Part shown: positions 2,881 to 3,415 of the stretch, piece by piece
Position numbering within the stretch: the first letter of the stretch is position 1
How the letters are laid out: each line of letters starts with the position of its first letter
NCBI GenBank assembly: GCA_964016885.1
Contig: OZ024746.1
Coordinates: 96,348,001 to 96,412,000, forward strand
Origin: Eledone cirrhosa
Taxonomy: Eukaryota
Direction of reading: 5' to 3'
Length of the DNA stretch: 64,000 bases
Notes under the pieces: model-generated
Database searches by the model: none
Told to the model about the DNA's origin: nothing
The model's input: the letters and a program-made list of their open reading frames with translations, nothing else
Program-made: the position numbers and the translations under genes

Positions 2881-3415
2881 AAAATAAAGTTAAATAAAAG
2901 TCAAATGATTAAAATTTAGCTTCGTTTATTACTGCTATATATATTTCAGTGACAGCCATCTTTGGCTGTGACCTCTTCAGGCAGTTTGAATTAGTATGGT
3001 ATAGACAAGTACATATGTTGTTTAGGTGTATGATATTGTCAATACTCTGATATGCCCAGTTCCTTGTTGGGTTGTTAATTCACTGGGGAACTGGAGTCAT
3101 ATGACTCCAGTTCCCCAGTGAATTAACAACCCAACAAGGAACTGGGCATATCAGAGTATTGACAATATCATACACCTAAACAACATATGTACTTGTCTAT
3201 ACCATACTAATTCAAACTGCCTGAAGAGGTCACAGCCAAAGATGGCTGTCACTGAAATATATATAGCAGTAATAAACGAAGCTAAATTTTAATCATTTGA
3301 CTTTTATTTAACTTTATTTTACACTACTCCGGAGTAACCAAACCAACCTGCGCACTTCGTCGAGTGCTCCAGCCTGCATACTGAGGTGTTGGTATACAAC
3401 CAACATAAACTCAAA
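2881..3415. mobile_element. Perfect 440-bp palindrome (2881-3320, centre 3100/3101) plus about 95-bp one-sided tail; PLE terminal-repeat fold-back
   Basis: Arms are exact reverse complements with no spacer. Each arm has a hammerhead core followed by AATAAA. Flanked by (TA)n on both sides. Confidence 0.9.
3216..3270 (+). ncRNA. Type I hammerhead ribozyme (mirror copy on - strand at 2931-2985)
   Basis: ACTGC-CTGAAGA-[GGTCACAGCCA AAGA TGGCTGTCACT]-GAAA-TATATA-TA-GCAGT-AATAAA: stem I, stem II and a palindromic stem III are all present. Confidence 0.85.

Follow-up and report, generated by a model that had tools for sequence, protein, structure and literature searches.

Hammerhead palindromes in the Eledone cirrhosa genome are ordinary debris of Penelope-like elements and may record an integration intermediate

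The window analyzed here, a stretch of 64,000 nt from Eledone cirrhosa (assembly GCA_964016885.1, contig OZ024746.1, positions 96,348,001 to 96,412,000), contains eight short palindromes. A self-comparison of the window and direct reading recovered all eight where a preliminary description, made from the letters alone, had placed them. Each of them lies within or beside a (TA)n tract, and all eight bear a tail confined to one side, as had been described. The palindrome at 2880-3321 is indeed perfect (442 bp, 100% identity, zero spacer), while the arms of the other seven match at 81-99%. The earlier count of at least six unrelated sources also stands, since six families were distinguished: E1 (2881), A, F35, G (51281), F52, and F55. 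Family A comprises the palindromes at 30165, 49595, and 62790, which are 75-82% alike; the remaining five have no mutual similarity inside the elements.

The E1 insertion has three parts. A tail-less arm on the minus strand (2880..3100) consists of positions 1-221, counted from the centre, of the pseudo-LTR (pLTR) of a Penelope-like element (PLE), inverted, and stops in (TA)n at the first of two fixed 3' ends. It is followed on the plus strand by a direct arm (3101..3321), which again covers positions 1-221, and by a 94-nt tail (3322..3415), which stops at the second fixed 3' end and continues into an ORF in full-length copies. The centre, TCATATGA, is an 8-bp palindrome that pre-exists in the parent PLE. 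A predicted minimal type I hammerhead lies at 3216..3270 on the plus strand and is mirrored on the minus strand at 2931-2985; it has a stem I of 5 bp, the core CTGAAGA/GAAA, a long stem II, and a palindromic ATAT loop III. In isolation the motif is predicted to adopt this minimal type I form, but the structure predicted for the entire palindrome leaves none of it unpaired.

The three family A insertions lie at 30165..30613 (plus strand; palindrome 30165-30521, right tail), 49510..49981 (minus strand; palindrome 49592-49981, left tail), and 62697..63157 (minus strand; palindrome 62783-63157, left tail). Family F35 occupies 35310..35547 (minus strand; palindrome 35378-35547, left tail), family F52 occupies 52271..52490 (plus strand; asymmetric palindrome 52271-52400, right tail), and family F55 occupies 55523..55719 (minus strand; palindrome 55581-55719, left tail). 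The family G insertion (51281..52110, plus strand) begins with an inverted piece (51281-51459), which is followed by a 430-bp monomer (51461-51890) and a partial second one in direct tandem.

An outward-facing hammerhead in each arm had been claimed for most of these palindromes, and this is true of half of them. The core CTGAnGA..GAAA is intact in both arms at 2881, 35378, 49595, and 55604. Two others carry an identical core change in both arms, TTGATGA at 30165 and GATA in place of GAAA at 62790. The palindrome at 52277 has a noncanonical CAGAAGA core in one arm only, and the centre at 51281 holds only the GAAA half, the full core being read in the next direct repeat (51874-51898). Among the 150 Rfam matches listed of 316, which were dominated by microsatellite hairpins, the hammerhead family was absent. 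The core-inactivating changes in both arms of 30165-30521 and 62783-63157 would have their source in a mutant template or in inter-arm conversion. In family F52, the sequence CAGAAGA (52331-52354 in the window; loci L250-L274) replaces CTGAnGA behind a splice-acceptor-like tract. By analogy with Drosophila virilis Penelope, where the hammerhead core is completed by splicing (PMC4209133), the F52 core may be completed only after splicing.

Genome-wide copies were located in the 3.0 Gb genome by exact sequence patterns. The 29-nt E1 pattern gave 4,285 matches, and the patterns of the other families gave 12,557 (A), 8,164 (F35), 8,162 (F55), 15,818 (G), and 40,417 (F52). We found that the E1 arm is the pLTR of a PLE of about 4.1 kb, whose long copies have RT and GIY-YIG-type ORFs between the pLTRs. 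The translations of four parents (L080, L081, L084, and L085) contain the RT motifs GSSDS and YRDD and then a YIG-type nuclease with a Cys/His motif. E1 thus has the makeup of an EN+ PLE: an RT followed by a C-terminal GIY-YIG endonuclease between pLTRs, a partial-tandem pLTR with an inverted 5'-truncated copy and a one-sided tail, and a minimal type I hammerhead within the pLTR, judged by sequence and predicted fold. Pfam held no curated match for the E1 parent protein, and sequence searches of PDB and Pfam did not name its RT. The protein has 228 homologues, of which the named ones come from octopod, coral, and urchin, and its nearest named RT relatives are from octopod. The F35 parents have an upstream nuclease ORF resembling the GIY-YIG type of E1; longer upstream parent sequence was seen for A, F52, and F55, and coding parents were read for E1 and F35. 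The suggestion that the palindromes are extreme PLE truncations is therefore well founded, as the E1 arm belongs to an element with RT and GIY-YIG domains and four further families extend into longer parents. Non-LTR retrozymes are direct tandems of hammerhead monomers, and the five palindromic families do not have this form; among the matches listed, their motifs occurred as inverted pairs or kilobases apart.

End counts and pairs were taken from exact-match copies on contigs C1 and C2. For E1, the end sample was the 100 exact matches listed first for contig C1 in coordinate order, whether palindromic or not. The 3' ends of these arms fell almost entirely on two sites 94 nt apart, with 58 at position 221, 41 at position 315, and 1 elsewhere. 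Of 70 close head-to-head pairs, 69 joined one 221 end to one 315 end, and the remaining pair was interrupted by Ns; this count leaves out the long tandem loci L012-L014, L023, L024, and L081-L083. At L081, the close pair is tail plus tail, since the direct arm there serves as the upstream pLTR in a tandem ending at 221. L063 and L064 form a segmental duplicate, and L064 was dropped from the pair analysis. The tails at 3322-3415, 30521-30613, 35310-35377, and 55523-55590, which belong to unrelated families, share an ACTC..GAGT pair. It forms a stem in the predicted folds of E1, F35, and F55, but not of A, and is a candidate for protein recognition at the first start site.

The two arms of a pair are concordant at subfamily-diagnostic sites in nearly all pairs, and so both arms probably derive from one RNA. 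Palindromes joining arms of two subfamilies were considered and rejected: long arms carry internal jumps, and the arms are concordant. Concordance is equally compatible with fold-back copying or later gene conversion, which counts against twin priming. It would be expected if a single tail-primed cDNA reached the 5' end, folded back, and copied itself, the unequal arms being later deletions in unstable palindromes. Self-priming has already been proposed for PLE palindromes, on an antisense template (Arkhipova et al. 2013, PMC3846280), and the parent centre is self-complementary. Moreover, some loci show a fold-back of 14-57 nt at the centre and then a jump to a tail piece, indicating that local self-priming contributes to the joining. 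However, fold-back copying would need to end precisely at 221, the same place at which full-length and non-inverted copies have their free 3' end. Among 34 unselected pairs, the tail-less arm extended further toward the 5' end in 20 and the tailed arm in 6, and 8 pairs had equal arms. The 8 equal pairs suit fold-back, but a fold-back copy cannot exceed its template, so the 20 longer tail-less arms, 8 of which have no sequence in common with their partner, imply either that priming occurred twice or that one side was deleted later. The excess of 20 over 6 gives p=0.009 against a 50:50 expectation and p=0.056 if deletions scale with arm length. Later deletion could thus be the source of the unequal arms, although several of the pairs in question are 99-100% identical to the window arm (L009, L025). 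In addition, family G has the same two ends without a fixed centre. We therefore consider fold-back by itself an unlikely origin, and the idea that the palindromes self-primed by folding back explains at most part of what was found.

The exact E1 centre was found at 201 loci, and the parent junction at this site in 784 copies. The 5' ends of the 100 unselected arms were concentrated at the same place: 38 lay at -5..+3, only 5 at -60..-6, 22 at +4 or later, and 35 beyond -60. A second 8-bp palindrome, which contains CATATG and lies nearer the 3' end, is the centre at 6 loci only; self-complementarity alone therefore does not set the E1 centre. Centres shared across loci had been put forward as a test of propagation. 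The sharing is real, but it extends over several parental subfamilies, and non-palindromic arms stop at the same base. At least five haplotypes (reference, 34G, 15T+69T, 15T+23A+69T, and 81T) are common to centre palindromes and parent-junction copies, which, together with those non-palindromic arms, speaks against a propagating element.

Non-autonomous hairpins that spread as palindromic RNAs from a few master copies would also account for an exact centre at 201 loci. One pair of loci argues for them. L047 (G000:C1:210875890) and L048 (G000:C1:215422102) have the same arm-specific private changes, which occur only twice genome-wide, and their flanks are unrelated over 10 kb. Judging by these changes, the palindrome was copied as a unit once, via retrotransposition or DNA-level conversion. 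Against a general role for such spread, this was the single pair of its kind, noticed by eye among the 51 of the 201 centre copies that were read, and a distance of 4.5 Mb on one contig suits DNA-level conversion. Furthermore, the predicted fold has the whole ribozyme paired, and the cores of both arms are dead in 2 of the 8 palindromes. A propagating hairpin class, which had been offered as an alternative, should form a private lineage; since the haplotypes are those of the parents with this one exception, we regard it as very unlikely. L047 itself occupies the middle of an older inverted repeat.

Ends also piled up in the other palindromic families; in these counts, some insertions are represented by both arms and some loci are duplicates. 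In F55, 28 of 30 5' ends fell within 12 nt behind a landmark and none in the 48 nt upstream. The corresponding numbers just behind the landmark and in the 48 nt upstream were 10 of 25 versus 3 in F52, 9 of 30 versus 1 in A, and 6 of 30 versus 0 in F35. The F55 centre lies 30 nt downstream of TATAAATA in the parent, which we take to be a TATA box, and CCAAT motifs occur further upstream of it. The other landmarks were TTAGT in F52, ATTTGCAT and CACTA in A, and CCAAT about 55 nt upstream in E1, all of which are presumably promoter motifs. Because the landmarks were picked by eye after the pile-ups were known, transcription start inside the pLTR is something that we infer from the pile-ups. Such a start agrees with promoters located within the pLTR (PMC2377424, PMC3846280). 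Two other origins were rejected. The centre is not the ribozyme cut site, as the E1 centre is about 165 nt upstream of the predicted cut; one arm (L058) starts near the cut. A splice-acceptor origin of the F52 pile-up was set aside, the bases before AG being kept in the copies.

The pile-up might also mark a reverse-transcriptase stop or a TA-microhomology trap rather than the RNA start, with priming otherwise as in the reading that we prefer. The E1 site contains ATAT, like the (TA)n target, and the F55 and F52 sites are at the 5' edge of the ribozyme. Yet the second CATATG is hardly used as a centre, the distance to the ribozyme core varies between families from about 6 to 120 nt, and TA-rich family G has no pile-up, so that we give this explanation very little weight. 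A fold-back sequencing or assembly artefact, which had been named as a possible refutation, can be dismissed almost entirely: the E1 palindrome is perfect and no read contig spans the whole E1 stretch, but the inversion ends at the element boundary between unique flanks, the arms have diverged in 7 of 8 palindromes, the centre recurs at 201 loci, and raw reads of an independent study with the same species label contain an asymmetric-type, opposite-strand joint from arm position 4 to the tail (5 reads, 3 starts).

The observations themselves comprise the PLE parentage, the two fixed 3' ends and their one-to-one combination within pairs, and the sharp 5' pile-up with its recurrence across subfamilies. 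More likely than not, each palindrome is a minimal insertion into (TA)n of two PLE ends placed head to head, built anew by twin-primed cDNAs that run off one RNA. The PLE protein would cut both target strands, and both target ends would prime on one RNA, one at each of the two fixed reverse-transcription start sites, a protein dimer acting on a single RNA. When priming uses the copy of the start sites nearest the 5' end, the cDNAs would be 100-300 nt long and would run off the likely 5' end of the RNA. The cDNA ends would then be joined head to head by microhomology, in E1 at the self-complementary TCATATGA, sometimes after a short fold-back. The upstream-primed cDNA would lead, which fits the observation that the tail-less arm reaches further more often. 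According to this model, the hammerhead is present in such a stub only because it lies between the transcription start and the reverse-transcription start. The stubs are likely dead on arrival, since the upstream promoter is missing and, in a read-through RNA, the ribozyme is predicted to be locked into a long duplex.

Several of these steps have counterparts in vitro. The Poseidon PLE protein PAc cuts and extends both strands of AT-rich DNA, two internal start sites bound the tail, the protein is predicted to be dimeric, and the upstream ribozyme is dispensable (Frangieh et al. 2024, PMC11167929). In the parts of that report that were consulted, inverted insertions are not linked to this activity and the start site is alike on both strands, without strand bias; the genome, in contrast, pairs one of each per insertion, which counts against the model.

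Family G differs from the other five. Its monomers are non-coding, stand in direct tandem, and each carry a type I hammerhead motif, which by sequence makes it non-LTR retrozyme-like. Genome-wide arrays reach 5 monomers of 466-540 bp each. The sample comprised 71 runs at 53 loci (about 82 of the first 100 matches listed), and 13 of the 71 runs had 2-4 monomers. The 3' ends, which run into (TA)n, were at about 297 (31 runs) or about 358 (32 runs), with 8 not assigned; where both arms were resolved, most pairs carried one end of each kind. On the other hand, the 61 resolved 5' ends were spread from 9 to 486, with a maximum of 6 in any 9 nt and no pile-up, as would be expected of a circular or multimeric template without a fixed 5' end. 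All 30 copies that were retrieved with a pattern lying 3' of the ribozyme continue across its predicted cut. For the motif by itself, the minimum-energy structure was not the active hammerhead form, and an autonomous partner was not found among the 14 parent loci compared. Family G shares the two-end insertion marks of PLEs and was therefore likely moved by the same enzyme; its insertion in trans would follow the same two-site mechanism, with circular or multimeric RNA as the template. The proposal of retrozyme-like, PLE-mobilized elements hence fits the family at 51281 only, where the repeating unit is a direct tandem monomer and not a hairpin. A second family G insertion occurs at about 4990-5560, the family also covers 51745-52110, and an octamer-like ATGCAAAT lies within the monomer.

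There is, in our estimation, about an even chance that the stubs record a Penelope integration intermediate, in which linear RNA yields start-centred palindromes, whereas a circular retrozyme RNA yields tandem arrays that end at the same pair of sites but lack a fixed centre. If so, it explains the inverted repeats and one-sided tail of PLEs, PLE promoters are mappable from DNA alone, and family G documents directly, in the genome, the insertion of animal retrozymes by PLE enzymes.

Most of the architecture is known. An inverted truncated pLTR copy with a one-sided tail is the standard insertion unit of EN+ PLEs (Craig et al. 2021, PMC8557442; PMC3846280). The palindromes resemble this unit in the head-to-head inverted copy, the junction palindrome, the one-sided tail, the AT-rich or microsatellite target, and the order of RT and GIY-YIG; unlike it, the insert here is the pLTR only, the tails measure 60-95 nt versus 30-40 nt, and the junctions pile up at one base. 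In Schistosoma, "dual min-HHRs about 100-700 bp apart in opposite strands" were reported (Cervera and De la Pena 2014, PMC4209133). Those pLTR hammerheads are likewise minimal type I motifs with a short stem I, a long stem II, a palindromic loop III, and the same opposite-strand spacing, but in the portions of that article that we consulted they are not tied to two start sites or to 5' run-off. Family G resembles animal non-LTR retrozymes (PMC7229834; bioRxiv 10.64898/2026.07.22.740005) in its non-coding tandems with one type I hammerhead per monomer, its dispersed arrays, and its coexistence with PLEs. Its monomer of 430-500 bp is at or above the published range, and its array ends carry a PLE-type tail and an inverted copy. 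In the main texts, the terms "inverted" and "target site" are absent from PMC7229834, and "tail" is absent from bioRxiv 10.64898/2026.07.22.740005. The other five families differ from retrozymes in not being tandem.

A related mechanism is the twin priming of LINE-1, in which both primers come from the target, share one RNA template, and produce an inversion whose parts are joined through microhomology. There, the internal annealing site of the second primer varies and the arms do not overlap, whereas here both sites are fixed and the arms often overlap fully. Our literature search, which covered listings and abstract openings, returned no twin-priming or run-off account of PLE palindromes. 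The palindromes are thus real and mostly of known architecture; they are ordinary PLE debris and not a new class of elements. What is new is the evidence on mechanism, and part of the value lies in family G. As far as the sources were consulted, PLE palindromes are attributed to antisense self-priming (PMC3846280), or the formation of the inverted and tandem structures is called undefined (PMC8557442). PLEs as movers of retrozymes are only suggested (PMC7229834), likewise by phylogeny (bioRxiv 10.64898/2026.07.22.740005). With thousands of copies per family in this genome, and a 5' pile-up that is either fixed or absent beside the same two 3' ends, both questions become simply testable.

Further observations concern the distribution of these sequences. 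Read runs labelled as other organisms (X4, X6-X12) contain 31-78% of E1 words, and contigs from runs X4 and X7 closely match the E1 arm and tail; this would make the family common to related species or horizontally moved. A seventh family of short tailed palindromes, beyond those described before, occurs at 5694-5813, 9315-9458, 15248-15384, and 52212-52255, and a full hammerhead core was not found in these four copies. A head-to-head inverted PLE end at 60718-62628, with arms of about 900 bp that hold nuclease-coding sequence related to the ORF at 11183-12163, had also been missed. At many loci (e.g., 52212-52650 in the window, L174, and L186), stubs from different PLE families lie stacked within shared (TA)n tracts, and every insertion leaves TA targets for the next. 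Long minisatellite arrays, with units of 20, 27, 8-38, 26, and 29 bp, lie at 7-2282, 24300-26735, 45740-46917, and 55853-56539.
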